Assembly: GCA_045639585.1 (NCBI GenBank)
Contig: JAZUDJ010000109.1
Location: 8,378-72,377, forward strand
Direction: 5' to 3'
Length of the DNA: 64,000 nt
Source: Bacteroidales bacterium
GTDB lineage: Bacteria; Bacteroidota; Bacteroidia; Bacteroidales; UBA3663
Shown here one piece after another: positions 1,929 through 51,186 of the stretch; positions within the stretch are counted from its first letter, which is position 1; the number at the start of each line of letters is the position of its first letter. A model generated the notes under the pieces. The model had not been told where the DNA came from. It saw nothing but the letters and a program-made list of their open reading frames with translations, and ran no database searches. The position numbers were made by a program, and so were the translations under genes.

Positions 1929-1939
1929 TTTTGCCTTAT

Positions 1940-3511: not shown

Positions 3512-3581
3512 AGTATCACTCTTTATTTTCGCAAAAATAATTATTAGTAAGGACAAATAGATATCATTAAGACATAACAAT

Positions 3582-4808: not shown

Positions 4809-4809
4809 T

Positions 4810-6330: not shown

Positions 6331-6751
6331 GCTTTTGTCTGCAATTATATGTGTCTTATTGTTTTGTATCTTCTCGTTCTCATGTCAGAATGGAGAAGAT
6401 ATTGGCGACCTCTACGGTCAATGGCGATTGGAAGAAGCTACCGATGATCACGGGACGTCATTTGTCAAAGACGGCATGTACCTTTCTTTCCAGGACAGGG
6501 TAGCCTGCGTCAAGCAAGTCAACTATACTTCGCATGGTTATCAGGATGTATATGCTGCATTTCATCAGGACGGTGACAGCTTGTTTTTTCATTTCAGCTC
6601 CAATAGTCATTCTGCTGATGATACGACGATGGTTTGCCGTACCTTCCGTTTTCAGCCATTTACAAATACTCGTTTGCACATTGTGACTGAGAGCAATACA
6701 CGTTTAGTTTTAGAAGATAAAGGAACTTGCTGGAGATTCATAAAATACTAA
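6314..6751 (+). CDS. Small lipoprotein, lipocalin-like
   Basis: Lipobox LFCIFSFSC followed by QNGEDIGDLYGQWRLEE (a GxW motif typical of lipocalin-like domains). Overlaps the upstream ORF by 17 nt. Confidence 0.55.
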   Translation: MARSSKLLSAIICVLLFCIFSFSCQNGEDIGDLYGQWRLEEATDDHGTSFVKDGMYLSFQDRVACVKQVNYTSHGYQDVYAAFHQDGDSLFFHFSSNSHSADDTTMVCRTFRFQPFTNTRLHIVTESNTRLVLEDKGTCWRFIKY

Positions 6752-6757
6752 ACTCCT

Positions 6758-8302: not shown

Positions 8303-9294
8303 AAAACTTCATAGATTATATCAAGCATATCCTCCGAAGCAACAGCTTTTATAAGCGTTACTTTCAAGGTAATATCAATGCACTGCGATATTTCATAAAA
8401 GACTTGAAGGTATATTTCCGTGATTATACCCTTCGTAAGGACTTTGAAGTGACTGGCAATACCGTCTATTTTGTCTTTGATCCTACGCAAAAGCATCCTG
8501 GAATGACCGATAGAATCAAAGTCATTGTCTGTTGTTATTGGATTGCCAAGCAGAATGGGTTCGACTTTAAGATCATCTATGATCAGCCTCATCTTCTGTC
8601 TGATTATTTGAGCGAGAATCTTGTGCAATGGAAGGCCGATCGTAGCGAATTGTCTTATTCTCTGCAGAATAGCCGGCTCCTCTCGTATAATGGTAGCTTA
8701 GAGGTACCTCGTTTATCCAAAAAGGTCAAGCAATACCACATCCTTCATTATATTGGCATAAATATCCTGCTGAATAACCAGATTCCCGATGCTGAGCGCT
8801 TGTGGACAGAGTGCTATAATGAGTTGTTCAAGCCATCACATCGTCTGGCCGATGCTTTTGCTGCTACGAAGCTGGTTCCTGGAAGCTATGCCTCTGTGCA
8901 TCTGAGGTTTGTTAATGCCTTGGAGCACTTTGAGGATGGTTTTTATAATTCGATTTCTCCAGAGGAACAGAAAATATTGATTGAGAAATGTCTCTCAGCG
9001 CTCAAAGACATCAAGCAGAAGTGTGAAGGACTTCCTCTTTATGTGTTCTCAGATAGTAATAGATTCCTGACTATTGCTCGTGAAGCTGGCTATCTCTCTC
9101 TCGATGGCCAGATAGGTCATATCTCTTTTGTCAATAATGAGGATGCATTGCTCAAGACCTTCCTTGATTTGTATGCGATCAGCCAGAGTGCGCAGGTCTT
9201 TCGCGTGTTAGGTTCTCCTTTATATAATAGTACATTTCCTTACTATGGAGCATTGATGGGAGGCAAGTTAGGTCAGAAGATCGAAATTTTATAG
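8299..9294 (+). CDS. Hypothetical soluble protein, possibly a glycosyltransferase (fucosyltransferase-like motif order)
   Basis: The ATG at 8299 overlaps the wzx stop (ATGA). Motif order SVHLRF ... LYVFSDSNRFL ... DLYAISQSAQVFRVLGSPLYNSTFPYYGALMGG parallels GT11-type HxRRxD / fSDD / NSTFSWW motifs, but only loosely. Confidence 0.5.
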   Translation: MKNFIDYIKHILRSNSFYKRYFQGNINALRYFIKDLKVYFRDYTLRKDFEVTGNTVYFVFDPTQKHPGMTDRIKVIVCCYWIAKQNGFDFKIIYDQPHLLSDYLSENLVQWKADRSELSYSLQNSRLLSYNGSLEVPRLSKKVKQYHILHYIGINILLNNQIPDAERLWTECYNELFKPSHRLADAFAATKLVPGSYASVHLRFVNALEHFEDGFYNSISPEEQKILIEKCLSALKDIKQKCEGLPLYVFSDSNRFLTIAREAGYLSLDGQIGHISFVNNEDALLKTFLDLYAISQSAQVFRVLGSPLYNSTFPYYGALMGGKLGQKIEIL

Positions 9295-10304
9295 CTTATA
9301 ATCTCATTGTCGCACATTGGCGTGTGATAATTTTGGTCTATCTGCTTGTTATTTATGGTATTGATGATTTTGACATCAATGCTATCTCCTGTGGCTGGAA
9401 TCTCCCACAACTGAATAAGTCCGTCTCCTCCATTTTCCAGATACTGGATGTTGAACAGCATCTGCGGGATTTCGCGTCCTTCGCAATTCTTTGAGGTTGT
9501 AAATAGTGAGAAACTATTGTGTCCACAGATCACTGCTCTGACATTATCATTCGGATAAACCAGATTCTCCCAGATTTCTTCTGGCGAGCTGTTGGGTCGA
9601 TCACCAAAATGCTTCCTCGCATAGGAGTTCTTGGTATTTTCGCGGAATCCTTCAGAGTTCAGATATTCATGTGTCAGGACGATAAATCGCTTTTCCTGAT
9701 TGTTTTCTACATAGTTACGTGCCCAATCCACGGCCTCTGGTCGTGGGGCAAACTCAAGAGTAATAATATAAAAGTCCTGACCTTTAATCTGATTACGGAC
9801 AATAATGTTGTCCATTCTGCCCGTCTCAAAATACGCTATGATGTTTTCCTGGGTTTTCGGGAAGTTAGTATATTGATTAAACAGGGACGAACTACGATCA
9901 TAGATCTGGTTCCCGTCTTTCCAGTCATAGTCATGATTACCTGTGACTGGCACAAATAATACATCCTCCGCCAAATATTTTGAGTAGTCATAGAAGACGC
10001 GGTATTGCCATTTCTCATTGCTGCTCGACTGATCTCCAACCTGCAGCACACAGTCAATCTTGTATCCTTTCTGGTGCATTCCCCTGATCCAATTGACTGA
10101 TTTCATGTAATATGGAGAATATTTATCGAAGTAAGTATACTCTTGCACATCACCCATGACAATCAAATATTCTGAAGTCGGATCGAGTGGATAGTCAAAG
10201 ATATTGCTATATGAATACGTCTCAAAGTCCGGACCACAAGATATCCATCCCAGCATGGCAAGGATACAGTAAGTTTTCTGAAGGAAGAACTTTGATAGAC
10301 GCAT
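9273..10304 (-). CDS. Calcineurin-like metallophosphoesterase, lipoprotein
   Basis: Lipobox MLGWISC. Metallophosphatase motifs GDVQ, QVGDQSS, VTGNHDY, LTHEY and ICGHNS appear in canonical order. Confidence 0.8.
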   Translation of the reverse strand: MRLSKFFLQKTYCILAMLGWISCGPDFETYSYSNIFDYPLDPTSEYLIVMGDVQEYTYFDKYSPYYMKSVNWIRGMHQKGYKIDCVLQVGDQSSSNEKWQYRVFYDYSKYLAEDVLFVPVTGNHDYDWKDGNQIYDRSSSLFNQYTNFPKTQENIIAYFETGRMDNIIVRNQIKGQDFYIITLEFAPRPEAVDWARNYVENNQEKRFIVLTHEYLNSEGFRENTKNSYARKHFGDRPNSSPEEIWENLVYPNDNVRAVICGHNSFSLFTTSKNCEGREIPQMLFNIQYLENGGDGLIQLWEIPATGDSIDVKIINTINNKQIDQNYHTPMCDNEIISYKISIF

Positions 10305-10308
10305 AGCT

Positions 10309-11118
10309 TTACTTATCGAGCCAGAAAATATTGTTTAATGTGTGTGGTGAGGTACGCTTTTCTTCCGGTGGCAACTGCATATAGTCACCATAGTAGTTAC
10401 GGAGGATTTTGTCATATCCAACTGGAGCCAGGAAACTTCGTCCCTCAAAAGGAAGACCGATATAAGAACTGAAAAGATCTTTCTCGTAAATGTTGTGGAT
10501 AGCGTGAGGGTCGGTTCCGGCTGGTGTCCCTACAAAAGCGCCATCTTTGTTAGGATTACTTGCGATTCTCTGATTGATATCCTCCGCAAGTTCTTTTGGC
10601 GAAGTGTTCAGTACCAATACTTTAGAGAGGTAGATGGCAATACGCTTCCACCACACATTCTTTGACGATGGCTTCAGGATCTTCATCCTGAATTTCGTTT
10701 TGATAGGAGTGAGGGACTTAAGAAAGTCGATAGCATCTTCTTTGGTTTCTGCCAGGCCATCCATGGGGAAAACATCTACGTTGATACCAATATTCTTGAT
10801 ATTTGCATTTTCCAGCAATAAGGTCCTTGTATCTGCGACCTTGGCATAAGGAATTACATAGTCCTCGTCCCTCCGATAATCATAGACCTTATAATAGGAG
10901 TGCTTGTATGATGCCACAAACTGCTCATAATCCACTCGTGGCAGCATAATGTCAATATCATCATCCCAAGGGATATAACCTTTATGTCTGACCGCACCAA
11001 GCAATGTACCAAAAGCAAGCGCATACTTGAGATTATGATCCTGGCAGAAGTCATGAATCGACTGCAGGATTTCAAGCTGTATGGCTTTCAGTTCTTCTAT
11101 ATTAATTGCTTTTGGCAT
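10309..11118 (-). CDS. licD: LicD-family phosphotransferase (phosphocholine/phospho-alditol transfer to glycans)
   Basis: Signature YALAFGTLLGAVRHKGYIPWDDDIDIMLPR. Length of 269 aa is typical. Confidence 0.85.
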   Translation of the reverse strand: MPKAINIEELKAIQLEILQSIHDFCQDHNLKYALAFGTLLGAVRHKGYIPWDDDIDIMLPRVDYEQFVASYKHSYYKVYDYRRDEDYVIPYAKVADTRTLLLENANIKNIGINVDVFPMDGLAETKEDAIDFLKSLTPIKTKFRMKILKPSSKNVWWKRIAIYLSKVLVLNTSPKELAEDINQRIASNPNKDGAFVGTPAGTDPHAIHNIYEKDLFSSYIGLPFEGRSFLAPVGYDKILRNYYGDYMQLPPEEKRTSPHTLNNIFWLDK

Positions 11119-12338
11119 TATTGGTAAAGATTAAGTAGTTGATGATAATAGTTGGTATCTCCATACTTTACGATGGCATCTGCTGAGATCTTCTCATAGT
11201 CAAAGGTCTTTGACCTCATTGCCATGATAGCATCCTGCAGCTGCACCTGATTGCCTGATTCAAAGACACTTCCATTACTTTCGTTCAGAAGTTCCGGTAT
11301 GCCTCCTATATTTGCTCCTAAGACCGGTGTGCCCAAAGAGAGACTCTCGATAATGGATATTGGGTTGTTCTCACTGCATTCCGATGGCAGGACCATCATC
11401 TTGGCACCAGCGACTAAAGGCTTGATTTCTGACCAGTTGAGCTGTCCTTTGAATTCAATGTTCTCTGCTTGAGCGTAAGCCGAACGTAGCTCTTTCTCAA
11501 TGAAGCCACCGCCTATCACGATGAGCTTATATGGAAGTGCTGCTGCCGCTTTGCAAAGCGTTCGTATGCCCTTGATCGGGTTCAGCTGGCCAAGATAGAC
11601 GTAGTAATCCTGCTTCGGAGCCAGAGAATCATTGACTTTATTGATGTCAATGAAATTGCTCATAACCATGAGCTTAGCGTTATCGAACCCACCGCGTTTC
11701 ATTGTATTTGCCATAAACTGGCTCGGACAGATAAATTGATCAACTAAGGATTGTAAGCGCTCAGCTGTCCACTTCTTAGCCTCTTGGTAGCCAATATATG
11801 AACCTAAAGCTCCACCATTCATACACTTGTGGCGGAGGACGGCTCGCGTATCTGCAAAGCATTCTTCGCACCATTTACCATCACGCATACAAGTGTAGCA
11901 TGGACAGACAAGTTTTGTGTCGTGGAGCGTCCAGATCACACGTATGCCACGCTCGTGAGCCAGCTCAGCGAGGATAGGAGAGAGCTGCGTGTGAATATTA
12001 TTAAGGTGGACGACGTCTGGCTGAAAATCGTCAAGGATGGCTTTGAATTTTTTCTGGACGGTGCCTAGGCCGAAAGGACGGAGCAGGGAGTCAAGTATGT
12101 GGAGGCTCGGCTTCATCTTGAATTCTGATGGCCAGTATTTGCTCCAGGGTGATGGCTCATTGAGAGGATACTGCTGTGAGAAGATAGCTACCTCATGACC
12201 GTGGCTCTTAAGCAGTTGCTCAAGATTCATGGTATAGATACAGTCACCTCCGCGACGGTAATAGAACTTATTGCAAAGGAGTATCTTCACGTCCCAATGC
12301 TGATATTTATTATTTGCTATTTGATAAGTCCTCGGCAT
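11118..12338 (-). CDS. Glycosyltransferase family 4 (GT-B)
   Basis: E-x7-E motif ENNPISIIE followed by LGTPVLGANIGGIPELL. The stop overlaps the licD start. Confidence 0.85.
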   Translation of the reverse strand: MPRTYQIANNKYQHWDVKILLCNKFYYRRGGDCIYTMNLEQLLKSHGHEVAIFSQQYPLNEPSPWSKYWPSEFKMKPSLHILDSLLRPFGLGTVQKKFKAILDDFQPDVVHLNNIHTQLSPILAELAHERGIRVIWTLHDTKLVCPCYTCMRDGKWCEECFADTRAVLRHKCMNGGALGSYIGYQEAKKWTAERLQSLVDQFICPSQFMANTMKRGGFDNAKLMVMSNFIDINKVNDSLAPKQDYYVYLGQLNPIKGIRTLCKAAAALPYKLIVIGGGFIEKELRSAYAQAENIEFKGQLNWSEIKPLVAGAKMMVLPSECSENNPISIIESLSLGTPVLGANIGGIPELLNESNGSVFESGNQVQLQDAIMAMRSKTFDYEKISADAIVKYGDTNYYHQLLNLYQ

Positions 12339-16766: not shown

Positions 16767-18581
16767 TTACTTAGATGCCTTCAGAGAGACTGTTCTGTTG
16801 AATACGATGTGATCATCGGTAGTGTCCTTATCGACACAGAAATAACCGATGCGCTGGAACTGGAACTTCAAGCCTTCGCGTGCTGTTCCGTCAGGAGCGT
16901 AGGTGAATGGCTGCTTCTTGACCATCTCTGCTGCGAATGGCTCAACGTATGCATCGACGACAACCTCGCTCTGAGGATTGCGCTCTGACTCGGTAGTAGC
17001 CTCCTCATCGAGGAAGAGATTGTTGTAGAGACGAGCCTCGACCTTGACTGCGTGCTGTGCTGATACCCAGTGGAGAGTACCCTTCACCTTACGGTCTGCA
17101 CCTGGCATACCGCTCTTTGACTCAGGATCGTAGGTACAGTTGATGTTGATGATCTTGCCGTTCTCGTCCTTGTCGCAAGAGATAGCCTTAATGATGAATG
17201 CACCCTTGAGACGTACCTCCTTGTCGATGGTCAGACGGAAGAACTTCTTCTCTGCAACCTCCTGGAAGTCCTCACGCTCGATGTAAAGCTCGCCAGAGAA
17301 TGGCATCTCGTGCTTGCCAGCGCCTTCCTGCTCAGGATTGTTATCCATCTCGCACATCTCAACCTTGCCTGCTGGCCAGTTGGTGATGGTGAGCTTGACA
17401 GGATCGACGACACCCATGACGCGGGTAGCCACCTTGTTGAGGTCATTACGGCCAGCATTCTCAAGTAGCACGATGTCGTTGAGCGCCATGAACTTGGTAT
17501 AGCCGATGGTGGTAATGAAGTCACGGATAGCAGGAGCGGTGTAACCACGACGGCGGAGGCCACAGAGGGTCGGCATACGAGGATCGTCCCAACCACGAAC
17601 GATGTGATTCTCAACCATGTCGCGCAGATAACGCTTAGACATCACGGTGTTGGTGAGGTTCAGACGATTGAACTCCATTTGACGTGGCTTGTAGGTGATA
17701 CCGAGAGAATCGGTGATCTCATGCTCGCCATTCTCTGGCTTCTCGTTGGCACCGAGCTTCTCGACGAGACCCTCTTCATAATGAATGTCCTTACCCTCCT
17801 TGATCAATGCCATGATTGTAGCAAAGTAGTTGTAGAGAGGACGGTGAATCTCGAACTCAAGCGTACAGATAGAGTGGGTGATACCCTCCAGGAAGTCCGA
17901 CTGGCCATGAGCGTAGTCGTACATCGGATAAGCATTCCATTTGTTGCCAGTACGGTGATGTGGATACTTGATGATGCGATACATGATTGGATCGCGGAAA
18001 TGCATGTTAGGGTTGGCCATGTCAATCTTGGCACGGAGAGTAAGCGTACCCTCCTCAAACTCACCCTGGTTCATGCGACGGAAGAGATCGAGCGACTCCT
18101 CCCAAGCACGATTGCGGAATGGAGACTCAACACCTGGCTGAGTTGGAGTACCCTTCTGTGCTGCGATCTGCTCGCTGGTCTGCTCCTCAACGTATGCAAG
18201 GCCACGCTTGATCATCTCCTCGGCCAGATCCCAGAGCTGCTGGAAATAGTCAGAGGCATAATACATGCGGTCACCCCAGTCGAAACCGAGCCAGTGGATA
18301 TCCTCCTTGATAGCATCTACATACTCGGTATCCTCGCGGCTTGGATTGGTATCGTCGAAACGAAGATTACACTGGCCGTCATACTTGGCAGCAGCACCGA
18401 AGTCCATGCAGATAGCCTTGGCATGACCGATGTGCAGATAACCGTTTGGCTCTGGTGGGAAACGGGTGTGCACCATCTTGGTAGGCGATGCAGCCACCTT
18501 CCCGGCTTTGATATCTTCTTCAATAAATTCTTCTACGAAGTTCGAACTTTTCTTTTCAATAGCAACCTCTGAAGCTTCCAT
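16767..18581 (-). CDS. glnS: Glutamine--tRNA ligase
   Basis: TRFPPEPNGYLHIGHAKA (HIGH motif), VMSKR (KMSKS motif) and the C-terminal anticodon-binding beta-barrel region. Confidence 0.95.
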   Translation of the reverse strand: MEASEVAIEKKSSNFVEEFIEEDIKAGKVAASPTKMVHTRFPPEPNGYLHIGHAKAICMDFGAAAKYDGQCNLRFDDTNPSREDTEYVDAIKEDIHWLGFDWGDRMYYASDYFQQLWDLAEEMIKRGLAYVEEQTSEQIAAQKGTPTQPGVESPFRNRAWEESLDLFRRMNQGEFEEGTLTLRAKIDMANPNMHFRDPIMYRIIKYPHHRTGNKWNAYPMYDYAHGQSDFLEGITHSICTLEFEIHRPLYNYFATIMALIKEGKDIHYEEGLVEKLGANEKPENGEHEITDSLGITYKPRQMEFNRLNLTNTVMSKRYLRDMVENHIVRGWDDPRMPTLCGLRRRGYTAPAIRDFITTIGYTKFMALNDIVLLENAGRNDLNKVATRVMGVVDPVKLTITNWPAGKVEMCEMDNNPEQEGAGKHEMPFSGELYIEREDFQEVAEKKFFRLTIDKEVRLKGAFIIKAISCDKDENGKIININCTYDPESKSGMPGADRKVKGTLHWVSAQHAVKVEARLYNNLFLDEEATTESERNPQSEVVVDAYVEPFAAEMVKKQPFTYAPDGTAREGLKFQFQRIGYFCVDKDTTDDHIVFNRTVSLKASK

Positions 18582-36326: not shown

Positions 36327-36368
36327 AATAATGGACGTCATGATATATGGCGTCCATTATTATTTTAT
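36327..36368 (+). terminator. Hairpin plus T-tract terminator
   Basis: aataatggacg (36327-36337) pairs with cgtccattatt (36351-36361), followed by attttattg. Confidence 0.6.
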
Positions 36369-36411
36369 TGAAATATTCTATTATTTATTTGGTCATGTGC
36401 TCAAATGTGTG

Positions 36412-36419
36412 TATCTTTG
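36412..36419 (+). promoter_or_regulatory. -7 box TATCTTTG
   Basis: tatctttg lies 50 nt upstream of the ATG at 36469. This argues against the track start at 36331. Confidence 0.5.
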
Positions 36420-36468
36420 CCGTGTCATTATTAATGTTGATAAGATAAAGATTACACATATTATATAT

Positions 36469-38304
36469 ATGAAGAAGATTCTAGGTTTACGCTCATATAT
36501 CGATCTGGCTCTTGTGGTCATCTTAGTGGCAGGTCTTGTCTATAGCATCGGTTTCGGTGTGAGTCTCTACATTGCCCGTCAGGAGGTCACTGCAGAGGTT
36601 AATAGCAAGGTGCAGCGTGACATTGAGTTTGTCAATACCTATGTGGACGGACAGCTACAGCGCGTAGAAGATGTAGCGTTTACTCTGATTAGCTCGAAGT
36701 TCGGTGCAAGTAACCGTGATGCGAATGGTGAGGGTATGGTACTTATTGACCCTTCGACATTCCGACTTCCAACTGAAGAAGAGGTATTCCTCGATCTGGA
36801 ACGATTCCTTGACATTAATCCTCATATTTGTGGAGCTGCTATTGGTTTTGAGAATTTCGTTTATCCAAATACTGTGGGAGAATATGGCTTTGCTGCCTAT
36901 GTTACTAATGTATCTGGTGTGAATGAGCGCCTATATCTTGGCCAGATCCATGATTTCCATCTGAAGGAATGGTATAAAGAGGCTGCTACGCTTAATAAAC
37001 CTTACTGGAGTCGTCCGTTTGCAGAGACTCGCATGGGAAAGGTTGTCACTTGCTATAGTCTTCCTCTTCATGGAAGAGGTGGTCGACTGGTAGGTGTTCT
37101 TGCGGTGGACATTGATACTGATGCTTTCCGACAGAAGTGTAATGAAGTTTCTCCATTCCCAGGCTCTGAGGTTACTATTGTCGACCGAGAATTCCGATTT
37201 GTCAGTCATCCGGATTCTTCTATGATCATGAAATCGGTAGCTGAGTTGGAGAAATACACTGGATATAGTTCGGATGACAGTATTCAGGAAGCAATGGTGG
37301 CTCAGACAGGTGGCAGCTTTACTGTTACTACTGCAGATCACAGAGAGTCATTCTTCTTTATCTCTCCAATAAAGCGTAATGGTTGGACTATCTCTATTGA
37401 ATGTCCGAAAGAGAAAGTCTTTGGAGGTGTGTCTCGCATGAAGCGTGATACGACCATCATTGCAGTAATCAGCATTCTCTTTATGCTCATTGCTATGCTC
37501 TGGATCTTCCGTCGCTTACAGAAACTGACTATCAGTAAGACGGGTATTGAGAGTGAGCTGAAAGTGGCTTCGAGCATCCAGATGGGTATGATCCCTAAGA
37601 TTTATCCAGCGTTCCCAGATATAAAAGAGCTCGATGTATGTGGCTTCCTGAAACCTGCCAAGAGTGTCGGTGGAGATCTATATGATTACTGCATACGTGA
37701 TAATAAACTATTCTTCTGTATTGGAGATGTATCAGGCAAGGGGATACCGGCCTCTCTCTTTATGACGGTCATTGTAGCTCTTTTCCGCAATGTCTCTTTG
37801 CGTATCGATGATCCTGCAGAAATTCTCTCGTCGCTCAATGACACTATTAGTAAGGGTAATGAGTATTCGATGTTCTGTACAATGTTCCTGGGCGTGCTTG
37901 ATCTGAAAACTGGTAAGTTGAGTTACTGCAATGGTGGCCATAATGCTCCGATTATCAGACGACTGAAGGAGGATGGCTCTATGGACGTTAAGTACATGGA
38001 TGTCAAGCGAAATATTGCAGTAGGTTTGTTTGATGGTTTCATTTTCGAAAAAGAAGAAACGCGATTAGCTCAGGGAGAAGCCTTATTCCTCTATACTGAC
38101 GGTGTTACTGAAGCAGAGAATGCAAATCACGAGCTGTTTGGTGAGGAAGCAGCGCTTTCTTCTTTGATTGAGGCCCGAAGCCACGATGTGCGTACGTCTA
38201 AGGGATTTGTTGAGTATGTATATAATTGCATAGCAAAACATGCTCATGATGCCGAGCAAAGTGATGATATCACAATGCTTGTAGTCGATTTTAAGGGAGA
38301 ATAA
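36469..38304 (+). CDS. Membrane-bound sensor PP2C phosphatase (SpoIIE/RsbU family) with an extracytoplasmic Cache-like domain
   Basis: TM1 (LALVVILVAGLVYSIGFGVSLYI), a periplasmic domain of about 300 aa and TM2 (IIAVISILFMLIAMLWIF). PP2C motifs follow: GGDLYD, GDVSGKGIPASLFM, YTDGVTEA and DDITMLVV. Confidence 0.85.
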   Translation: MKKILGLRSYIDLALVVILVAGLVYSIGFGVSLYIARQEVTAEVNSKVQRDIEFVNTYVDGQLQRVEDVAFTLISSKFGASNRDANGEGMVLIDPSTFRLPTEEEVFLDLERFLDINPHICGAAIGFENFVYPNTVGEYGFAAYVTNVSGVNERLYLGQIHDFHLKEWYKEAATLNKPYWSRPFAETRMGKVVTCYSLPLHGRGGRLVGVLAVDIDTDAFRQKCNEVSPFPGSEVTIVDREFRFVSHPDSSMIMKSVAELEKYTGYSSDDSIQEAMVAQTGGSFTVTTADHRESFFFISPIKRNGWTISIECPKEKVFGGVSRMKRDTTIIAVISILFMLIAMLWIFRRLQKLTISKTGIESELKVASSIQMGMIPKIYPAFPDIKELDVCGFLKPAKSVGGDLYDYCIRDNKLFFCIGDVSGKGIPASLFMTVIVALFRNVSLRIDDPAEILSSLNDTISKGNEYSMFCTMFLGVLDLKTGKLSYCNGGHNAPIIRRLKEDGSMDVKYMDVKRNIAVGLFDGFIFEKEETRLAQGEALFLYTDGVTEAENANHELFGEEAALSSLIEARSHDVRTSKGFVEYVYNCIAKHAHDAEQSDDITMLVVDFKGE

Positions 38305-40225: not shown

Positions 40226-41818
40226 TTATTGATAAATGTTAAGATAATGTGTTTCTGAATTGAAATTATTGACAAGGATTCCGAAATTCTTCTTATAAAC
40301 TTGCTTTGTTGCATCAAGTAATAATATAGAATCATCCTTTCTTAGTGGTCTTGCTGACCTGGTTGATGGCTTATCCTGATACTGATAACCAGCTTGTGTA
40401 AGTGCTACTTTGAGCATACTTTCTTCTGGATCACCTAACTGACAACCATCGATCGGATTATCTTCGACTTCTATGTCAGGAATATAACCATCAGGCATAC
40501 AACCTGTTATGCCATCTTTGTCTGCATATCGTGAAACTATCACGTACATTCCTATGTCATAGACAGCTTTTCTTCCTGCTTCATATATTCCCATTTTAGT
40601 CAGAGGATCTTTATATTCATCGTAAAATTCCTGTGCTCCAAGCAGGAATCCTCCACAATATTTACCGTATGACTTTTGACCAATCAGCATGACTGGCATA
40701 TATGGCTTTAGTCCACAGATCAAGGCTTCCGAGGCAGAAGCTGAATATCCAGTAATGATTACGTATAACTTCTCAATACCAATGTTGGCATTTGCAGTAT
40801 TCCAGATCTTATCCTCATCTTCAAGTTTGTACTTGAATTCTGTTTTGAATTTCTTTTCATTACTATGATTAAGTATTTTGTAATACTCAGTCAAGTCTTT
40901 GTTATAAACTTCAGTCTGAAAAACAGACTCCGCCTTAACTTCCGCTTCAGGTACTAGCATAGATGCTAATGCTTCTGAAGTAATGCCATAGCCACCTCCA
41001 TTGTAACGAAGGTCAAGAATCAGCTCTTTAATGCCGGCTTCCTTGAACTTTTTGCATTCCTCAATCAGTCGGTGTATTGAATCGAAAGTGAAACTATTGT
41101 ATACCATGTATCCGACCGTCTTGTCCTGACAGTCGAACATCTTGGTCAGCAGGACTGCGTCCTCTTGCAGGGTAACAGAGTTAATGGTGTATTGTTTTCC
41201 GTCAACCATCTCAACCGAGAGGGTAGAACCTTCCATAAGTTCGTCTGTAACAATGGCATAGTATTGGTCGTTCTCTAAAGGCATGAATTTATTATTTACC
41301 TTTAAGATGACGTCTCCACGTTTCCAACCTGCATTTTCTGCTGGACTACCTTTTATGATATATGTTACTACTGCACATACATTGTTTTTATCATACCTGT
41401 ATAGGACAAAGTCAAAGCCATAGGTTGTCTCGATACCGTCAAAACTATTGACAGATTCTTCAAAATTGTCGAGCATTACTGTCCATCGATCAATGTCCTG
41501 GCCATTTGAATCCTTGTAGCGTAATTCCTTGACAGCAGTAAATGGATCATCGAAGATTTTCCATTCTTCCATCTTTTCAGCGACCTGAGGTTCATCTATC
41601 CATAGATAATACTCACTAAGACTAGTAGCAGCAAATGTATTGATATAGTAGTTCCTCTGCTCTTCATTTGTCAATGGGATATCTTCCGTATCATTTCCAG
41701 GCAACACAACTATTTCTCTGTCGTTATCATCACTGCAGGAAGTGATTCCAAAAGAAATCAGGATGATCAAGAAAAGATAGAAGAGTCTGAACTGTGAACT
41801 GTGAACTTTATTCATCAT
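40226..41818 (-). CDS. S41-family peptidase lipoprotein with a PDZ domain
   Basis: Lipobox SFGITSC. PDZ-like GSPAENAGWKRGDVILKVNN. S41 motifs LILDLRYNGGGY and GYSASASE. Confidence 0.85.
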   Translation of the reverse strand: MMNKVHSSQFRLFYLFLIILISFGITSCSDDNDREIVVLPGNDTEDIPLTNEEQRNYYINTFAATSLSEYYLWIDEPQVAEKMEEWKIFDDPFTAVKELRYKDSNGQDIDRWTVMLDNFEESVNSFDGIETTYGFDFVLYRYDKNNVCAVVTYIIKGSPAENAGWKRGDVILKVNNKFMPLENDQYYAIVTDELMEGSTLSVEMVDGKQYTINSVTLQEDAVLLTKMFDCQDKTVGYMVYNSFTFDSIHRLIEECKKFKEAGIKELILDLRYNGGGYGITSEALASMLVPEAEVKAESVFQTEVYNKDLTEYYKILNHSNEKKFKTEFKYKLEDEDKIWNTANANIGIEKLYVIITGYSASASEALICGLKPYMPVMLIGQKSYGKYCGGFLLGAQEFYDEYKDPLTKMGIYEAGRKAVYDIGMYVIVSRYADKDGITGCMPDGYIPDIEVEDNPIDGCQLGDPEESMLKVALTQAGYQYQDKPSTRSARPLRKDDSILLLDATKQVYKKNFGILVNNFNSETHYLNIYQ

Positions 41819-44789: not shown

Positions 44790-46880
44790 TTAGCAAACCT
44801 TGCTGCCATTCTTTACCTTATCTTCATTGCATACTACATGCAGGCTTCCGTCGAAGTTGACTGCAGAGAGAATCATGCCACAAGATGGGATGTTGCGCAT
44901 TACCTTTGGAGCGAAGTTAGCTACAAAGAGTACCTGCTTGCCTACAAGTACCTGTGGATCTGGATAATGCTGTGCGATGCCAGAGAGGATGGTACGAGGC
45001 TGGTCGGTACCATCATCGAGGGTGAACTGCAGGAGCTTGTCGCTCTTCTTGACAGGCTTCACCTCAAGGACGGTAGCGGTGCGGATGTCGAGCTTGGCAA
45101 AGTCCTCAAATGGAACGGTCTCTGCGATTGGCTCAGGACGCCAGTTCTTCTCTGCTTCTGCGAGAGCGATCTTATCGTTCTCTTCCTTGATGTGAGCCAG
45201 ACGGTCGAGCTGTGGCTGGATGTCAGCATCCTCAAGCTTCTCGAAGAGGAGCACTGACTCGCCGAGCTGATGGCCTTCCTCGAGGAGGTCGATACGACCG
45301 AGCTTCTCCCACTCGCACTCACCCATGCCGAGCATGCCACGGAGCTTCTCAGCTGAGAATGGCAGGAATGGCTCGAAGGCAATAGCGAGGTTAGCAGCAA
45401 TCTGCAAGCAGAGGTTGAGGATGGTCTGTACACGTGCAGGATCGGTCTTGAATACTTTCCAAGGCTCGGTGTCAGCCAGGTACTTATTACCGATGCGAGC
45501 GAGCTCCATAGCCTCTTTCTGAGCGTCACGGAACTTGAAGGTCTCCAGGAGTTCCTCTACGTTCTTCTTGACGTTCTCAAACTCAGCCAGGGTTTCCTTA
45601 TCATAATCGTTGAGCTCGCCACAAGCAGGAACCTTACCGTCGAAATACTTCTCGGTGAGCTTCATCGCACGGTTGATGAAGTTGCCGAAGATAGCTACGA
45701 GCTCGTTGTTATTGCGAGCCTGGTAGTCCTTCCAGGTGAAGTCATTGTCCTTGGTCTCAGGAGCATTAGCGGTCAATACATAGCGTAATACATCCTGCTT
45801 GCCAGGCATGTCTACAAGGTACTCATTGAGCCAGATAGCCCAGTTGCGAGAGGTAGAGATCTTGTCACCTTCGAGGTTGAGGAACTCATTAGATGGTACG
45901 TTGTCTGGGAGAATGTAATCACCGTGAGCCTTGAGCATAGCAGGGAATACGATGCAGTGGAACACGATGTTGTCCTTGCCGATGAAGTGGATCATGCGGC
46001 TGCTCTGATCCTGCCACCACTGCTGCCAGGTACCCCACTTCTCAGGCTGAGCGTCGCAGAGTTCTTTGGTGTTAGAGATGTAACCGATAGGAGCATCAAA
46101 CCATACATAGAGCACCTTACCCTCAGCACCTTCTACTGGCACAGGGATACCCCAGTCGAGGTCACGGGTTACGGCACGAGGCTTGAGGCCACCATCGAGC
46201 CAAGACTTGCACTGGCCATAGACGTTAGGCCGCCACTCAGGATGATCCTGAAGGATCCACTTCTCAAGCCATTCCTGATGCTGGTCGAGTGGGAGGTACC
46301 AATGAGAGGTAGCCTTCTTGACCAGAGGATTGCCATTGACAGCATTGTATGGATTGATCAGCTCTTCTGGAGAGAGGGTAGCACCACACTTCTCACACTG
46401 GTCGCCGTATGCACCGAGAGCGTGACAGCGAGGACACTCACCACGGATGTTACGGTCGGTGAGGAACTCCTTGGTCTCTTCGTCATAGAACTGCTCAGTG
46501 GTCTGCTCGATGAACTTACCCTCATCGTAGAGCTTGCGGAAGAAGTCCGAAGCAAACTTGTGGTGGATGTCACTGGTGGTACGAGAGTAGATGTCGAACG
46601 AGATACCGAACTTCTCAAATGAATCCTTGATCAAGTAGTGATAACGATCGACCACATCCTGCACGGTGATACCCTCCTTACGAGCGCGGATGGTAACAGG
46701 AACACCATGCTCGTCCGAACCGCCGACGAAGAGTACAGGACGCTTCTTGAGACGGAGGTAACGAACATAGATGTCGGCTGGCACATAGACACCAGCGAGG
46801 TGGCCAATATGAACTGGACCGTTGGCATAAGGGAGCGCAGCGGTCACGAGCGTACGCTTGAAATCTTTCTGTTCTGCCAT
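44790..46880 (-). CDS. metG: Methionine--tRNA ligase with a C-terminal tRNA-binding domain
   Basis: [14 protein letters not shown] (HIGH motif), zinc knuckles [24 protein letters not shown] (KMSKS variant) and a C-terminal EMAP/Trbp111-like domain. Confidence 0.95.
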
Positions 46881-46952: not shown

Positions 46953-47016
46953 AGTTATTTTTCTAATTATGTCCAAAAAATTGGCAGTTATTCTTGTTTT
47001 ATATAATAAAATAATG

Positions 47017-47024
47017 TATCTTTG
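47017..47024 (+). promoter_or_regulatory. -7 box TATCTTTG upstream of the GGDEF/HD-GYP gene
   Basis: tatctttg lies 88 nt upstream of the ATG at 47112. Confidence 0.45.
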
Positions 47025-47111: not shown

Positions 47112-50100
47112 ATGATCAACAAGAATTCCATAGAGTACGATTCGCTGACTGGTTTATACAGCCGGTGGAAGATTCGTATGGCCTTGCAGGAAATTATCGA
47201 TTCTGGAGAAAATCGTGTCCTTACTTACCTCGATGTCGATAATTTCAAAGAAATCAATGCAAAATTTGGAAATGAGAAAGGTGATGCTGCACTCATCGCT
47301 ATCGGCCAGGCATTGACCAGGACTTATCCGGAGATGATGATCGGTCACTTGTCTGCAGATGAGTTCGCGATCATCATCGATGCAAGCAGATATTCGCGTA
47401 ACGACATGAATAATTTGACGCGTAGTCTGTTTAAGAACCTCCATGAGATTCATGTAGAGGGAATGGATGGTTACCGTTTCACATTCTCCATATCAGCAGT
47501 ATTCATTGTTCCTGAGCATCATACACATCCTGATCTTGTAATCCGTGAAGCCCATGAGCTCCACAAGATTTCAAAGAAGCACGAAGGCAATTACCTTAGT
47601 ACACTTAATGGAATGATTCCTGATGTAGAAGGTGCCTTCCAGATTCTCCGTGAGGACCGTAAGATATATAATGAGATCAATAATCATCTTTTTGATACCA
47701 TTAACGAGCAGTCATGGCTTGCCAACCTTGAAGAAGGTGCTATCCTCAAGGAGAAGATGTATCATCGTAATCAGTCACAGTTGGAAGACATCTATGAGTT
47801 TTATCGTGGTACTAATCTTCCTGATTCTGAGTACGAAATGCTCTTTGTTGAGATAATGACCGATGCAGATTCGCTCGATGCTTTTTTGCGTTGTAATCTG
47901 ATTGAGAGTATACTCTTGCCTTATTATGAGAAGCAAGATCTTTCTGACCCTCGTATCTGCTCTTATCTTGGACATCTATATCTGCTTCTCGCTCATAGCC
48001 TCCTTTCTGTAGTTCGAATGGGCGATGATACTCAGAGCTCTCGTGTCTTTGACTGTATGAAGAGAGCTTATCAGCTTTGTAAGAATTTCCCTCATGACAG
48101 CATTCAGTTTGAACCTGCATACTATGCTCTTTGCGGAATGGTAGGACACTATGAGAGTGTCAGCTTGCAGCTTTTCCCTAAAGAAGAGTGCGATTTCTGT
48201 TATGAGCAACTGCGAGAACTTACTTTGGGAGCAGATCCTTTTATCGTCCCAGAGAAGAAGGTCTATCGTTTCTTTGAAACTGTCGTCAAGAACGCTTTAT
48301 TATATCCTATCTTCCGAGTCTGCTTCCTTAAAATGAAGGGAGAAGATATCTCTGCAGAGGAGAAGATCGAGATGTCGGAACGAATTGCCTATATCCGTCA
48401 GCACCAGAACGGTGGTTGTTTTGATATGGTGGTAAACGACCCAGAACTTTGTCGTTTCTCTATCTATCTGCAGCAAGTGATGCTGGAAGACCTTGATAAT
48501 AATGAGTTGCTTGAAGGTCTTTTGAAAGGACTTCAATCTATTCGTGCCATGGAATATGGCCGACTGAGTGAATCAAATCTCATCATTGTCTCGTATCTAT
48601 TCTTGGCAACGTCAAAAGTCGTTTTGAATGTCGATCTACCTCATGAAGAAAAGTTGGAGATCAGCTGTAGAGGTCTTAACTTCCTTCTCGACATCCTTCG
48701 CAGCCGAGAGTCCTTGGCTTCTGACCATCAGCTGCTTCTGCTCGTACGCATCATGATCAATTCCATGATGAGTTCACCTGTCTTGTCTCCGCTTGACAAG
48801 TTCTATTACCTTGAGCAGATCATGGCAGCCATCTCTCTTGACGCGTACAGTCACTCCATGGCTCTCAGCAACTACGCTCATGTGATCCTGGCCAACATCA
48901 TCGACCATTATCCTCAGTTACTTGTAGGAGAGGATCGTGTCTATTCTACCATTGAAGAGGCACAGGCCAACCGTGAGCCATTGTTGCAATTCATGGATTA
49001 TGTCTGCCGACTGCATGATATCGGTAAGCTTTCTCTTATTCCTGTTACGAGCAATGCTTTCCGACGTCTTTCTGACCAGGAGTTCACTCTGATCAAGAAA
49101 CATACAGAATTCGGCAAGCAGATCCTGAGTCTCGATTCCAGATATTCCTTGTTTATTCCGATTGTCTATCATCATCATCGCTGGTATAATGAGGAAAAGG
49201 GTTATCCGTATATTCCAGAAAACGAGCATAACTATAAGCTAAAGGTACTTACCGATATTCTTAGCATCTGCGACTCGATTGAAGCTGCTACCAGTCGCGT
49301 CGGTCGTAACTATCGTCGTGCTAAGTCGTTCCTTCAGATCTTGGATGAACTGCTTTCTGATGCCGGCAGCCGATATAGCCATGAGATCATCAATAGTATC
49401 ATCGGTAATACTGAGACCTATCTCCAGATTCGCGCTATTGTAGATATACGTTGGAAAAGTCTCTATAGATCTATCTTCAAGAGTGTCAGGCTCAATCAGA
49501 ACGTTGAATACATGCATACTCAGGGAGAATTGCCTGATATCTTTGCCTATTCTAAGAAGAAGCTCGATGCCGAGTCGCTTGCAATACAGCAGGAAGGGCT
49601 TGTGATGCCAGAGTTTGTCAAGCAGATGGACAAGGAAACACTCGACATTCTTTTGATGGGTATGATGCATCAGAACAGGCTTTCTGTCATGCGTCATAAT
49701 TCGCTGATGTTCTTTTATAATGTAGCTCAGGATAGCATGTATTACCTTATGTGCGATGCTGATGGCAATCTTAAGCATTCGGTAGCTGCAAATTATTCTA
49801 TATCACCTCAGTATGCATATATTTCACGCGAAGGATATGAGAAAGCCATGCGAATCATTAAGCTCGTCATCGAAGATCCTGATTATCCGAAGGAAGGTCA
49901 GGAAACGATCGAATATATTAATAAGTCAAAGTGCTTGCTAACTCATTATACATCTGTCTGTGACGTTAATGGTAAGGTGAAGAGTGTTGTTGGTCATCTG
50001 GAAGACATCAATACTTCAAAAGAAAAGATGCTTCGTACGATTGACCGACAAAACCGTTACAACCAGATTACCGAGTCTTTAAGCAGGATGTTCGAGATCG

Positions 50101-50963
50101 TAGTCTATACCGATGTAGAACTCAAGAATCTCGAACTTATCAAAGCGTCCTCTACGGTTATGAGTCAGGCGGGTAATCTGACTACTACGACTGATTTTAT
50201 CAATTACACGCTAGATAATCTTGTCGATCCGGAATATATGGATCAGTTCAAGTCATTTATCGATGTCCGTACGCTAGACGAGCGATTAGCTGGTCGTTCA
50301 TATATTTCTCTCGAATACAAGTCTCGCCTTTCTGGTTGGCTCTTTGCCCGTATTATTCCAGTTTCGTTTGATAAAAAGGGTATGGTCACTCACTTCCTCT
50401 TTGCAGCCGAAAGTGCAGACGTTGCTCATAAAGAAAAGGAAGAATTGACAGAACTTGCTAAGAATGATGGTCTGACAGGTCTGCTGAATCGTATTTATGG
50501 AGAGAAATTCATACGAGAAGAGATTGCCAAGGGTGGCGAACAGGTCTTTGCTGTGCTTGATTGCGATCACTTCAAGCATATTAATGACTATCTGAGTCAT
50601 CTTGTCGGAGATGAAGTGCTCCGTCAGCAAGCTACCATCATGCGTCAGGTCTTCGCAGGGTTCAATATCATGCGTCTAGGAGGAGATGAATTCGTCGTTC
50701 ATGCCAATGGTGAGGTTGCCCATCGGTTTATTTATTCGTTCGATGGAGTCAACAATCTTTTCCGTCAGTTTGCAACTAAGATTTCTGAAGTTAAGATCCA
50801 GGAGCTCGAGAACATTGCACCAACCATGAGCTGTGGCGTCGTCTTCTGCACAGGATCAGTTCATCAGGCGACTTTCGATGACTTTTATGCAAAAGCTGAT
50901 AGCGCTCTTAAAGAGAGCAAGAAGAAACGTGGCGGATGTATTACCATCAGAGAGATGAATTAA
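47112..50963 (+). CDS. Multidomain cyclic-di-GMP signalling protein: degenerate GGDEF, helical region, HD-GYP, PAS-like x2, GGDEF
   Basis: N-terminal DSLTGLYSRW, LDVDNFKEINAKFGNEKGD and GHLSADEF (SADEF at 47352-47366). HD-GYP motifs RLHDIGKLS (HD at 49014-49019), HTEFGKQIL and HHHRWYNEEKGYPY. PAC-like VVGHLEDINTSKE. C-terminal NDGLTGLLNR, LDCDHFKHIND and RLGGDEFVV (GGDEF at 50679-50693). No signal peptide or TM segment. Confidence 0.85.
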   Translation: MINKNSIEYDSLTGLYSRWKIRMALQEIIDSGENRVLTYLDVDNFKEINAKFGNEKGDAALIAIGQALTRTYPEMMIGHLSADEFAIIIDASRYSRNDMNNLTRSLFKNLHEIHVEGMDGYRFTFSISAVFIVPEHHTHPDLVIREAHELHKISKKHEGNYLSTLNGMIPDVEGAFQILREDRKIYNEINNHLFDTINEQSWLANLEEGAILKEKMYHRNQSQLEDIYEFYRGTNLPDSEYEMLFVEIMTDADSLDAFLRCNLIESILLPYYEKQDLSDPRICSYLGHLYLLLAHSLLSVVRMGDDTQSSRVFDCMKRAYQLCKNFPHDSIQFEPAYYALCGMVGHYESVSLQLFPKEECDFCYEQLRELTLGADPFIVPEKKVYRFFETVVKNALLYPIFRVCFLKMKGEDISAEEKIEMSERIAYIRQHQNGGCFDMVVNDPELCRFSIYLQQVMLEDLDNNELLEGLLKGLQSIRAMEYGRLSESNLIIVSYLFLATSKVVLNVDLPHEEKLEISCRGLNFLLDILRSRESLASDHQLLLLVRIMINSMMSSPVLSPLDKFYYLEQIMAAISLDAYSHSMALSNYAHVILANIIDHYPQLLVGEDRVYSTIEEAQANREPLLQFMDYVCRLHDIGKLSLIPVTSNAFRRLSDQEFTLIKKHTEFGKQILSLDSRYSLFIPIVYHHHRWYNEEKGYPYIPENEHNYKLKVLTDILSICDSIEAATSRVGRNYRRAKSFLQILDELLSDAGSRYSHEIINSIIGNTETYLQIRAIVDIRWKSLYRSIFKSVRLNQNVEYMHTQGELPDIFAYSKKKLDAESLAIQQEGLVMPEFVKQMDKETLDILLMGMMHQNRLSVMRHNSLMFFYNVAQDSMYYLMCDADGNLKHSVAANYSISPQYAYISREGYEKAMRIIKLVIEDPDYPKEGQETIEYINKSKCLLTHYTSVCDVNGKVKSVVGHLEDINTSKEKMLRTIDRQNRYNQITESLSRMFEIVVYTDVELKNLELIKASSTVMSQAGNLTTTTDFINYTLDNLVDPEYMDQFKSFIDVRTLDERLAGRSYISLEYKSRLSGWLFARIIPVSFDKKGMVTHFLFAAESADVAHKEKEELTELAKNDGLTGLLNRIYGEKFIREEIAKGGEQVFAVLDCDHFKHINDYLSHLVGDEVLRQQATIMRQVFAGFNIMRLGGDEFVVHANGEVAHRFIYSFDGVNNLFRQFATKISEVKIQELENIAPTMSCGVVFCTGSVHQATFDDFYAKADSALKESKKKRGGCITIREMN

Positions 50964-50980: not shown

Positions 50981-51020
50981 ATAAGGTATCGGACGGTTTC
51001 GTTCGATACCTTATTTGTTT
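50981..51020 (+). terminator. Hairpin plus T-rich tail after the GGDEF/HD-GYP gene
   Basis: ataaggtatcg (50981-50991) pairs with cgataccttat (51004-51014), followed by ttgttt. Confidence 0.6.
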
Positions 51021-51186
51021 CATTAAGTTACTGTAGTGATTTCTGTAGTACCTTCCTACATCTCGGAAGGTATCGCACGAATCACTGTGATCCTTTCCTA
51101 CATCTCGGAAGGTACCGTAAGAATCACTGTGATCCCTTCCTATAAGTAAGAAGTTATCGCACGAAACATTGCGATAACTTCTTTTG
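51009..51186. repeat. Tandem 41-42-bp hairpin repeats of the same family as 13319-13528
   Basis: 51051-51091 ccttcctacatctcggaaggtatcgcacgaatcactgtgat. 51092-51133 cctttcctacatctcggaaggtaccgtaagaatcactgtgat. 51134-51175 cccttcctataagtaagaagttatcgcacgaaacattgcgat. A more degenerate unit lies at 51009-51050. Confidence 0.75.
51150..51186. terminator. Perfect 12-bp hairpin inside the last repeat unit
   Basis: gaagttatcgca (51150-51161), loop cgaaacat, then tgcgataacttc (51170-51181) and ttttg. It lies 8 nt from the stop of the convergent transporter gene. Confidence 0.6.

Follow-up and report, generated by a model that had tools for sequence, protein, structure and literature searches.

The protein discussed here is the 1283-residue product of a gene in a 64,000-nucleotide stretch of DNA from an uncultured Bacteroidales bacterium (assembly GCA_045639585.1, contig JAZUDJ010000109.1; the whole stretch is called the window below), and its closest described counterparts are hybrids that place opposing enzymes of cyclic diguanosine monophosphate (c-di-GMP) turnover on a single polypeptide. 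The census of Seshasayee et al. 2010 (PMC2952852) listed 74 hybrids of HD-GYP and GGDEF domains, 32 of them with PAS domains and nearly all with an intact GGDEF motif; hybrids with intact motifs were proposed to keep both activities, while a degenerate GGDEF domain was deemed unneeded for the control of an HD-GYP domain. Like these hybrids, of which P0036, P0051 and P0093 are examples, the window protein combines HD-GYP, PAS and intact GGDEF domains in one chain (identity to the three examples is 28%, 37% and 27%, respectively, over the 7-10% of the query that corresponds to the GGDEF domain), but it adds a second, degenerate GGDEF domain and a 410-residue helical solenoid ahead of the HD-GYP domain. 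Its family is thus an exception to the generalisation that HD-GYP domains need no degenerate GGDEF partner (PMC2952852). In bifunctional GGDEF-EAL enzymes (Tarutina et al. 2006, as cited in PMC6205966), opposing synthase and hydrolase are likewise carried by one protein and, as far as that citing account goes, balanced by sensor domains; by comparison, the window protein uses another hydrolase fold, contains two GGDEF domains and belongs to a family with no characterised member.

For the Bacteroidales, the record of c-di-GMP signalling is short. The four Bacteroidetes genomes sequenced at the time held no diguanylate cyclases (Galperin 2005, PMC1183210); the hemerythrin/PAS protein PG_0686 of Porphyromonas gingivalis has been reported as a novel diguanylate cyclase, evidence that some Bacteroidales use c-di-GMP (PMC10101095). 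PG_0686 has neither an HD-GYP domain nor a helical module and is not among the relatives found for the window protein, and no description of a GGDEF/HD-GYP hybrid in Bacteroidales was found in the literature. Full-length members of the present family amount to about 29 clusters among 5.8 billion proteins, and a scan of 185,579 species genomes with peptide patterns taken from the window protein, which reach close relatives only, gave one match, the Bacteroidales metagenome-assembled genome L001 (JAZRXZ01). The rarity of such genes in the order, which an earlier reading of this DNA from its letters alone (the sequence-only reading) had pointed out, agrees with these counts and with the 2005 survey.

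With middling confidence, and from sequence comparison and structure models, we read the gene as encoding a native, cytoplasmic and self-contained c-di-GMP turnover protein of a narrow, uncultured Bacteroidales lineage. Hybrids of HD-GYP, PAS and GGDEF domains are themselves known; what is new here is the rare and uncharacterised module modelled as a solenoid, together with the apparent pseudo-cyclase that precedes it.

Domain layout and the two predicted catalytic centres

The four-part layout proposed by the sequence-only reading, namely a degenerate GGDEF domain, a long helical stretch, an HD-GYP domain and two PAS modules followed by an intact GGDEF domain, is real, and so are its motif positions (Table 1), among them S81-A-D-E-F85 at 47352-47366, H635-D636 at 49014-49019 and G1190-GDEF-1194. 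Comparisons were made in an alignment of 29 full-length members, the window protein included, that share 44-99% identity; the start call appears right because the N-terminus aligns with those of the 28 relatives. A clade of 1523-1524-residue members (P0022-P0025 and P0027) carries an extra N-terminal extension of 237 residues with no Pfam match. Pfam recognised the GGDEF family in two stretches (143.9 bits over both; cutoff 23.8), left HD_5 below its cutoff and returned no PAS match, being silent over residues 760-1118 and offering no family for residues 165-575. The protein lacks a signal peptide, and its maximal hydropathy over 19 residues is 1.64, inside a modelled solenoid helix; both support the cytoplasmic location already supposed.

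Table 1. Features of the composite gene and its immediate flanks (window coordinates; L001 and L009, GCA_045598885.1, are related genomes)
Feature	Position	Strand	Basis
Bacteroidetes-type -7 box TATCTTTG	47017-47024	+	Read directly; conserved block in L001 and in L009 (metG side)
Complete coding sequence, 1283 residues	47112-50963	+	ATG start; collinear end to end with 28 relatives; omega 0.07 against L001
N-terminal degenerate GGDEF domain, residues ~6-161	47127-47594	+	Second Pfam stretch; NCBIfam models (residues 5-161)
Helical alpha-solenoid (TPR-like), residues 165-575	47604-48836	+	AlphaFold, 21 helices; no Pfam match
HD-GYP domain, residues 576-775	48837-49436	+	HD_5 below threshold; alignment to PmGH (4mcw); invariant residues
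PAS-like module 1, residues ~841-966	49632-50009	+	AlphaFold beta2-alpha-beta3; Foldseek tandem PAS
PAS-like module 2, residues ~996-1101	50097-50414	+	AlphaFold; Foldseek; invariant F1049, S1071, G1075, W1076, P1083
C-terminal intact GGDEF domain, residues 1117-1273	50460-50930	+	Pfam positions 2-158 of 161; GGDEF at 50679-50693
Terminator-like hairpin and T-rich tail	50981-51024	+	15-bp stem; hairpin 50981-51014

The C-terminal GGDEF domain carries the active-site marks of a cyclase. It scores above the cutoff of PF00990 and reaches 124.9 against a cutoff of 37.4 for TIGR00254; the RLGGDEF motif (residues 1188-1194) is invariant in all 28 sequences that extend to the C-terminus, and at least 90% of members share D1150, K1155, N1158, D1167, K1270 and R1273, in keeping with the intact motif first noticed. 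A GGDEF domain of the Hypr type, which makes cyclic GMP-AMP (cGAMP), was rejected because residue 1167 is Asp and not Ser, and this Asp argues for a canonical c-di-GMP cyclase. As previously remarked, neither GGDEF domain has an RxxD inhibitory site (I-site): the motif occurs at the corresponding position of neither domain in any family member, and the window protein reads FAGF at the C-terminal and YPEM at the N-terminal one.

The region ahead of this cyclase is recognisable by fold. Modelled by AlphaFold from the family alignment, residues 760-1118 form two beta2-alpha-beta3 modules with long helices between them (predicted local distance difference test, pLDDT, 78), and Foldseek returned 108 PDB matches at E<=0.001, the best of which are tandem PAS structures (FixL PAS-A/B, Brucella LOV-PAS and HIF-2a:ARNT; E ~1e-8, probability 1.00). 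The two PAS modules read from the letters thus hold at the level of the predicted fold, though sequence profiles miss them: Pfam gave no PAS match at E<=1, and neither did the family profile against PDB sequences. Family variants of 1135 residues lack precisely PAS module 1 (deletion ~817-964). Inspection of the conserved columns revealed no LOV-like cofactor motif, and of the histidines only H1094, where PAS module 2 ends, and H1106, in the linker, are near-invariant.

The HD-GYP domain presents a less uniform picture. The HD_5 profile (PF13487) aligns to residues 596-756 with 20.2 bits, below its cutoff of 27.2, probably because of a 22-residue insertion between H581 and H635. P0022, the sole re-scanned member of the 29-sequence alignment, scores 27.1 bits; the members of 44-49% identity have HD_5 or HD only as precomputed matches, weak or faint where graded, while more distant relatives that bear the helical module (P0132-P0140 and others) pass the cutoff with 30.2-49.9 bits. 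The best solved relative is the HD-GYP phosphodiesterase PmGH of Persephonella marina (4mcw), matched by phmmer over residues 623-738 at E=2.5e-7; LHDIGK, KKHT, HH...GYP and the Asp of CD...A all align with PmGH counterparts. The metal ligands D577, H581, H635, D636, H664, H688, H689 and D721 are invariant in the 29 sequences, with the pair D577/H581 ([D/E]xxxH, also present in PmGH) assigned by motif only and the HD, H, HH and D ligands by the PmGH alignment. G697-Y698-P699 is likewise invariant, and HH...GYP spans 49173-49208. The PmGH alignment, the eight ligand positions and the GYP motif together uphold the HD-GYP module claimed at the outset, and none of the ligands whose loss might have told against it is missing.

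The differences from PmGH lie in the insertion between the first His and the HD pair, in the reading HHRW in place of HHERW, and in the first ligand, which is Asp (D577) instead of Glu. A Glu at this position helps hold a third metal. The canonical signature HHExxDGxxGYP (as in PMC2952852) is not reproduced by the window protein, which reads HHRWYNEEKGYP with NE in place of DG, and across the clade that joins the helical module to HD-GYP the Glu of HHE has become Arg or Lys, except in P0020, P0026, P0028 and P0133, where Leu, Cys or Leu-Ser is found.

These departures bear on the rival reading in which only one activity is live, the protein being a net phosphodiesterase or a net cyclase whose other domain is regulatory or works as a "trigger" module that senses c-di-GMP. 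The lost Glu, the insertion and the low HD_5 score would all suit a silent hydrolase, and hybrids often carry one inactive domain (PMC6205966). However, both catalytic centres are invariant across a family of 44-99% identity, which is hard to explain if one of them were merely structural, and Seshasayee et al. argue that such hybrids keep both activities (PMC2952852). We regard a single live activity as somewhat unlikely, and a protein that both makes and hydrolyses c-di-GMP as the preferred reading.

The N-terminal GGDEF domain and the helical module

The N-terminal GGDEF domain is plainly of the cyclase fold family, its residues 8-157 aligning to the GGDEF domain of TpbB/YfiN (7a7e) at E=2.5e-9. 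It lacks the intact GG[D/E]EF that marks catalysis, reading HLSADEF in the window protein (47346-47366); throughout the family the motif is [S/A][G/A/S]DEF (29/29) and never GGDEF. N49 and D58, which contact guanine, are invariant in the alignment, while in several clades the Mg-binding Asp has become Asn and the catalytic Lys has become Ser, Arg or His. Erosion is strongest in the 1523-1524-residue clade, which reads VNLHDFK with Asn for the Mg-binding Asp. Binding of c-di-GMP at an I-site is unlikely because the RxxD motif is missing. This residue pattern fits a domain that has kept nucleotide binding without catalysis, and the earlier judgement that the domain is degenerate and probably non-catalytic stands.

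A parallel for such a domain is PdeA (CC3396) of Caulobacter crescentus, in which a degenerate GGDEF domain reportedly binds GTP and activates an EAL domain. In both proteins, a pseudo-cyclase that has lost the GG motif and kept nucleotide-binding residues stands upstream of a c-di-GMP hydrolase; in the window protein, the hydrolase would be an HD-GYP instead of an EAL domain, a large modelled solenoid lies between the two, and GTP binding is proposed by analogy.

In an alternative reading, the N-terminal domain is no sensor but a working cyclase in its own right, or pairs with the C-terminal GGDEF domain as a catalytic heterodimer. In its favour are reports of active natural SGDEF and AGDEF cyclases, the retention of D41, K46, N49, D58, D83 and E84 in the clade of the window protein, and P0138 and P0139, more distant relatives in which an intact RLGGDEF precedes the helical module. 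This reading is improbable: in the window protein both glycines are replaced (SADEF) and the preceding Arg is His, and the changes of the Mg-binding Asp and the catalytic Lys in several clades bespeak relaxed constraint on catalysis.

Between this degenerate domain and the HD-GYP domain, the roughly 450 residues of helical sequence in which the sequence-only reading saw no motif do model as a solenoid. The AlphaFold model of residues 160-600 is all-alpha, with 21 helices (pLDDT 84.3, predicted template modelling score 0.84). Foldseek against the PDB gave a best match of only E=0.015 within a list of generic TPR/ARM-like repeats (LGN, RapF, PrgX and designed toroids), and the family profile found nothing among PDB sequences for residues 165-575. 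Membership of the TPR or RRNPP type finds no backing in a TPR Pfam match, and the LGN TPR, RapF and PrgX structures match only at E=0.05-0.09 with template modelling scores of 0.27-0.41. The N-terminal domain of PmGH is unrelated, 4mcw falling outside the top 50 Foldseek matches for the solenoid. The fold class is thus clear in the model, and no specific relative exists among the solved structures compared.

The module is rare. An exhaustive profile search of 1.84 billion representative proteins gave 58 clusters at E<=0.001, of which 10 reach E<=1e-30. All 10 relatives below 1e-30 have an HD-GYP domain (P0029 and P0131 among them), and those scanned with Pfam have a GGDEF domain directly upstream, with SGDEF as its motif in P0131. 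Overall, an HD_5 or HD match lies C-terminal to the module in 17 of 20 relatives examined; of the three without one, two are mere fragments, while HD and GYP motifs can be read in the last. Each of the 19 examined relatives of sufficient length thus carries an HD-GYP domain downstream of the module. Four architectures were found: a standalone helical-HD-GYP form (~620-685 residues), GGDEF-helical-HD-GYP (~800 residues), GAF-GGDEF-helical-HD-GYP-GGDEF (1356 residues) and EAL-GGDEF-helical-HD-GYP (1164 residues). The upstream GGDEF motif ranges from intact RLGGDEF (P0138 and P0139) to NGDEF, GADEF, AADEF and SGDEF. From these architectures, the solenoid and HD-GYP domain emerge as a conserved core and the upstream GGDEF domain as its recurrent partner.

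The standalone form differs in its apparent destination: a hydropathy heuristic finds a signal-peptide-like start in 24 of 31 such proteins, and of the remaining seven several seem to be gene calls cut short. In standalone proteins of ~600-700 residues (among P0140-P0187, for example P0149, P0150, P0153 and P0161), the signal-like start is followed by the first conserved motif of the module, PDF...YN. An exported HD-GYP phosphodiesterase would be unusual, and the location an odd one for a hydrolase of cyclic dinucleotides.

The signal-like N-termini, which suggest a non-cytoplasmic substrate for the subfamily, also enter the argument that the HD-GYP core acts not on c-di-GMP but on another nucleotide (3'3'-cGAMP, pGpG or another cyclic oligonucleotide), as do the atypical HH[R/K]W motif and the second-best relative among PDB sequences, the cGAMP-specific V-cGAP3 of Vibrio cholerae (5z7c). 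This alternative is quite improbable for the window protein, since the module is fused to a GGDEF domain in every multi-domain relative, and once to an EAL domain, fusions that link it to c-di-GMP; among PDB sequences a c-di-GMP phosphodiesterase ranks first, and the C-terminal GGDEF domain has the canonical Asp where Hypr enzymes have Ser.

Genomic setting and descent

The composite gene lies beside metG, which is directly upstream on the opposite strand, and has its own promoter-like and terminator-like elements. The Bacteroidetes -7 promoter consensus is TAnnTTTG; the box TATCTTTG is conserved in two relatives (L001 and L009), and a TTG stands 20 nt upstream of it (46994-46996). The terminator stated before is present, with a 15-bp stem and a T tail. 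A structured leader had also been supposed; the fold energy of the leader is no better than in shuffles (z = -0.10), and its 8-bp hairpin is poorly conserved. Of the elements that the sequence-only reading gave to an autonomous unit, the promoter-like box and the terminator are supported and the leader structure is not.

Past the terminator, the convergent intergenic region holds three tandem copies of a 42-nt unit (51025-51175; 72-76% identity to the reference) that resembles one arm of the composite gene's terminator hairpin; the copies lie between this terminator and another terminator-like hairpin (51148-51183) beside the 3' end of an Asp-Al_Ex transporter gene. In L009, an extra 222-residue open reading frame (9282-9950) lies between metG and the orthologue and comes first behind the conserved promoter; it has a signal peptide (MKKFILSLCLVLMTVSAFAQ...) and no Pfam family, and is absent in the window, in L001 and in the related genome L011.

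Across the metG relatives found, all of them uncultured Bacteroidales, the composite gene adjoins metG in four genomes (the window, L001, L009 and L011), the proteins being 48-93% identical to the window's. L001 has an orthologue of 93% identity and is collinear with the window in 12 of the 12 genes compared, from S9/BD-FAE through HtpG. In L009 (metG 98% identical) and L011 (98 metG residues present on the contig, 98% identical), the composite gene sits between metG and a convergent MBOAT-GDSL-GDSL-dnaG-ksgA block; in L013 (GCA_045617885.1; metG 93% identical), MBOAT abuts metG across a 62-bp spacer and the composite gene is missing. In L014 and L015 (metG 88-89% identical), GH3 adjoins metG and the composite gene is not beside it. 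In the window and L001, the composite gene is followed by Asp-Al_Ex, ABC, C69 and HtpG genes, and the window has no MBOAT block; judged from gene order, the downstream side has since been rearranged in these two genomes. A functional link to the MBOAT/GDSL acetylation cluster is unsupported: the genes are convergent, and the cluster occurs without the composite gene in L013 and is absent from the window. Another family member of 47% identity stands away from metG (L010, 1286-11352), its start overlapping the stop of a 1251-residue Omp28/Big_5 protein whose gene is itself preceded by an 814-residue open reading frame of no family, giving the whole an operon-like look.

The low guanine-plus-cytosine content (GC) that the sequence-only reading took as a foreign sign is lower than that of glnS, as it had said, but is typical of the window. 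The composite gene has 42.9% GC, glnS (16767-18581) 51.6% and the window 46.0% on average, with individual genes ranging over 37.8-55.9%; against the other 42 open reading frames (mean 47.0%, standard deviation 4.4), z is -0.93, within one standard deviation, and for GC at third codon positions (GC3) it is -0.71. GC3 is below that of metG, HtpG and glnS, as it also is in many non-housekeeping genes of the window. The synonymous-codon distance to the pooled window ranks 2 of 43 (second smallest) and is among the smallest for long genes. Synonymous divergence (dS) from L001 is 0.50 for the composite gene and 0.48-0.49 for metG, ChrA1 and HtpG; with the omega of 0.07, sequence comparison of the two genomes points to vertical co-inheritance under purifying selection.

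Nonsynonymous change (dN) has been fast. Compared with L009, the composite protein is 72% identical (dN 0.185) and ChrA1 and S9 91-93% (dN 0.04-0.05), a rate about four times that of its neighbours; between L009 and L011, the composite protein is 48% identical with one PAS lost, whereas KsgA, MBOAT and DnaG are 84-93% identical. PAS module 2 and the solenoid are the most divergent parts, the GGDEF and HD-GYP domains the least. Against L009, dS is 0.56 for metG (44790-46880), about 1.5 for ChrA1 and S9, and saturated for the composite gene, while all are about 0.48-0.50 against L001; the low metG value points to a mosaic left by recombination or to a strong constraint on the codons of this gene. 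Xenologous replacement, considered for the 48-72% identity next to a 98%-identical metG, is unnecessary, since the roughly fourfold dN rate roughly covers the L011 divergence too and metG is the outlier. A second hypervariable gene of the region encodes an S41/PDZ tail-specific protease (40226-41818, minus strand), which has the lowest GC nearby (38.2%) and is 81% identical in L001 and 38% in L009 between flanks of 85-98% identity.

Recent horizontal acquisition by this strain is very improbable, the GC below the window mean, the patchy presence with its gap at the L013 junction and the distance to the nearest GGDEF matches outside the family (Lachnospiraceae proteins, 27-31% identity) being outweighed by typical composition and codon usage, dS equal to that of neighbouring housekeeping genes, a conserved promoter and place beside metG in four genomes, the lack of a flanking transposase or integrase, and plasmid and phage records that hold no copy of the helical module. 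The foreign origin first suggested thus does not hold: of the marks of a horizontally acquired island, those of composition, divergence and mobility are absent, and only patchy presence among close relatives is found. Of the pattern that the sequence-only reading named as telling against it, half is found: orthologues are syntenic and genome-typical without being ubiquitous. Recent transfer is largely refuted; an ancient acquisition by the clade ancestor is possible and would be compatible with the preferred reading. By its sequence record, the gene looks like a native, fast-evolving and lineage-restricted one, not a recent foreign import.

Elsewhere in the window, a low-GC (36-45%) capsule/exopolysaccharide locus at 1116-12338 encodes Poly_export (Wza-like), Wzz, Wzi, LicD and group-1 glycosyltransferase proteins, together with a weak MatE-family match (possibly a flippase) and two open reading frames of no family. 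Such loci are often under c-di-GMP control elsewhere. At 36331-38304 (plus strand), 9 kb upstream of the composite gene, a dCache_1/PDC sensor is fused to a SpoIIE-type PP2C phosphatase in a protein of 657 residues that is conserved at the edge of L009.

Proposed working and meaning

The following working can be proposed. The C-terminal PAS-PAS-GGDEF part would make c-di-GMP from GTP once the PAS sensors let the GGDEF domains of a dimer pair, and its synthesis would escape product inhibition because no I-site is present. The solenoid and HD-GYP domain would act as one conserved unit, hydrolysing c-di-GMP at a metal centre with its full set of ligands. In the N-terminal pseudo-cyclase, guanine- and metal-binding residues appear to be kept and the GG turn lost; its probable ligand is a guanine nucleotide, with GTP the likeliest, and it may set HD-GYP activity through the solenoid, much as degenerate GGDEF domains gate phosphodiesterases of the EAL type. 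The balance of the two activities, and with it the c-di-GMP level, would then be set by PAS input and by whatever the solenoid binds. As to history, the gene presumably entered or was retained between metG and the MBOAT cluster in one sub-clade and would since have passed down vertically, held by purifying selection and changing at several times the rate of the genes around it.

Several points weigh against this account. The HD_5 match stays below threshold in a domain with a 22-residue insertion between H581 and H635, and nearly all of the clade has Arg or Lys where the canonical HHE has its Glu. Enzymatic functions across the family are predictions from sequence and models, and the case for an N-terminal domain that binds GTP is drawn from just two conserved residues; conversely, relatives with SGDEF might still be catalytic. 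The mostly exported-looking standalone relatives raise doubt that cytoplasmic c-di-GMP is the ancestral substrate of the subfamily. The window holds no gene for a PilZ, MshEN or EAL protein and no GGDEF gene besides this one; Rfam models at their gathering thresholds return only two tRNAs from it and no c-di-GMP riboswitch, so that a receptor or riboswitch is not seen within the 64 kb. Finally, many hybrid proteins of c-di-GMP turnover have a single working activity (PMC6205966).

A bolder reading, which we put forward tentatively and think unlikely, takes the solenoid and HD-GYP unit as an undescribed HD-GYP subfamily with exported standalone and cytoplasmic GGDEF-gated forms, and the composite protein as possibly the sole c-di-GMP source and sink of its lineage. 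If so, the exported form would be an HD-GYP enzyme acting on nucleotides outside the cytoplasm; in the cytoplasmic form, a degenerate GGDEF domain would replace the signal peptide and gate the HD-GYP domain allosterically, the first HD-GYP counterpart of the switch in which a degenerate GGDEF domain controls an EAL domain, which the 2010 census judged unnecessary; and a sole source and sink would amount to a one-protein second-messenger circuit.

The helical module, as a rare and confidently modelled domain with no known relative, is a candidate new sensor or regulator for the HD-GYP class, and the pseudo-cyclase ahead of it hints at a mode of control that HD-GYP enzymes have not so far been shown to use. 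Bacteroidales were at first taken for an order without diguanylate cyclases, and their signalling through c-di-GMP has hardly been explored. The fast divergence of the gene and its presence/absence polymorphism among close relatives suggest niche-specific signalling, and the conservation of a synthase and a hydrolase in one protein indicates that at least one uncultured lineage of the order probably uses c-di-GMP, offering a compact system in which to ask what it controls.

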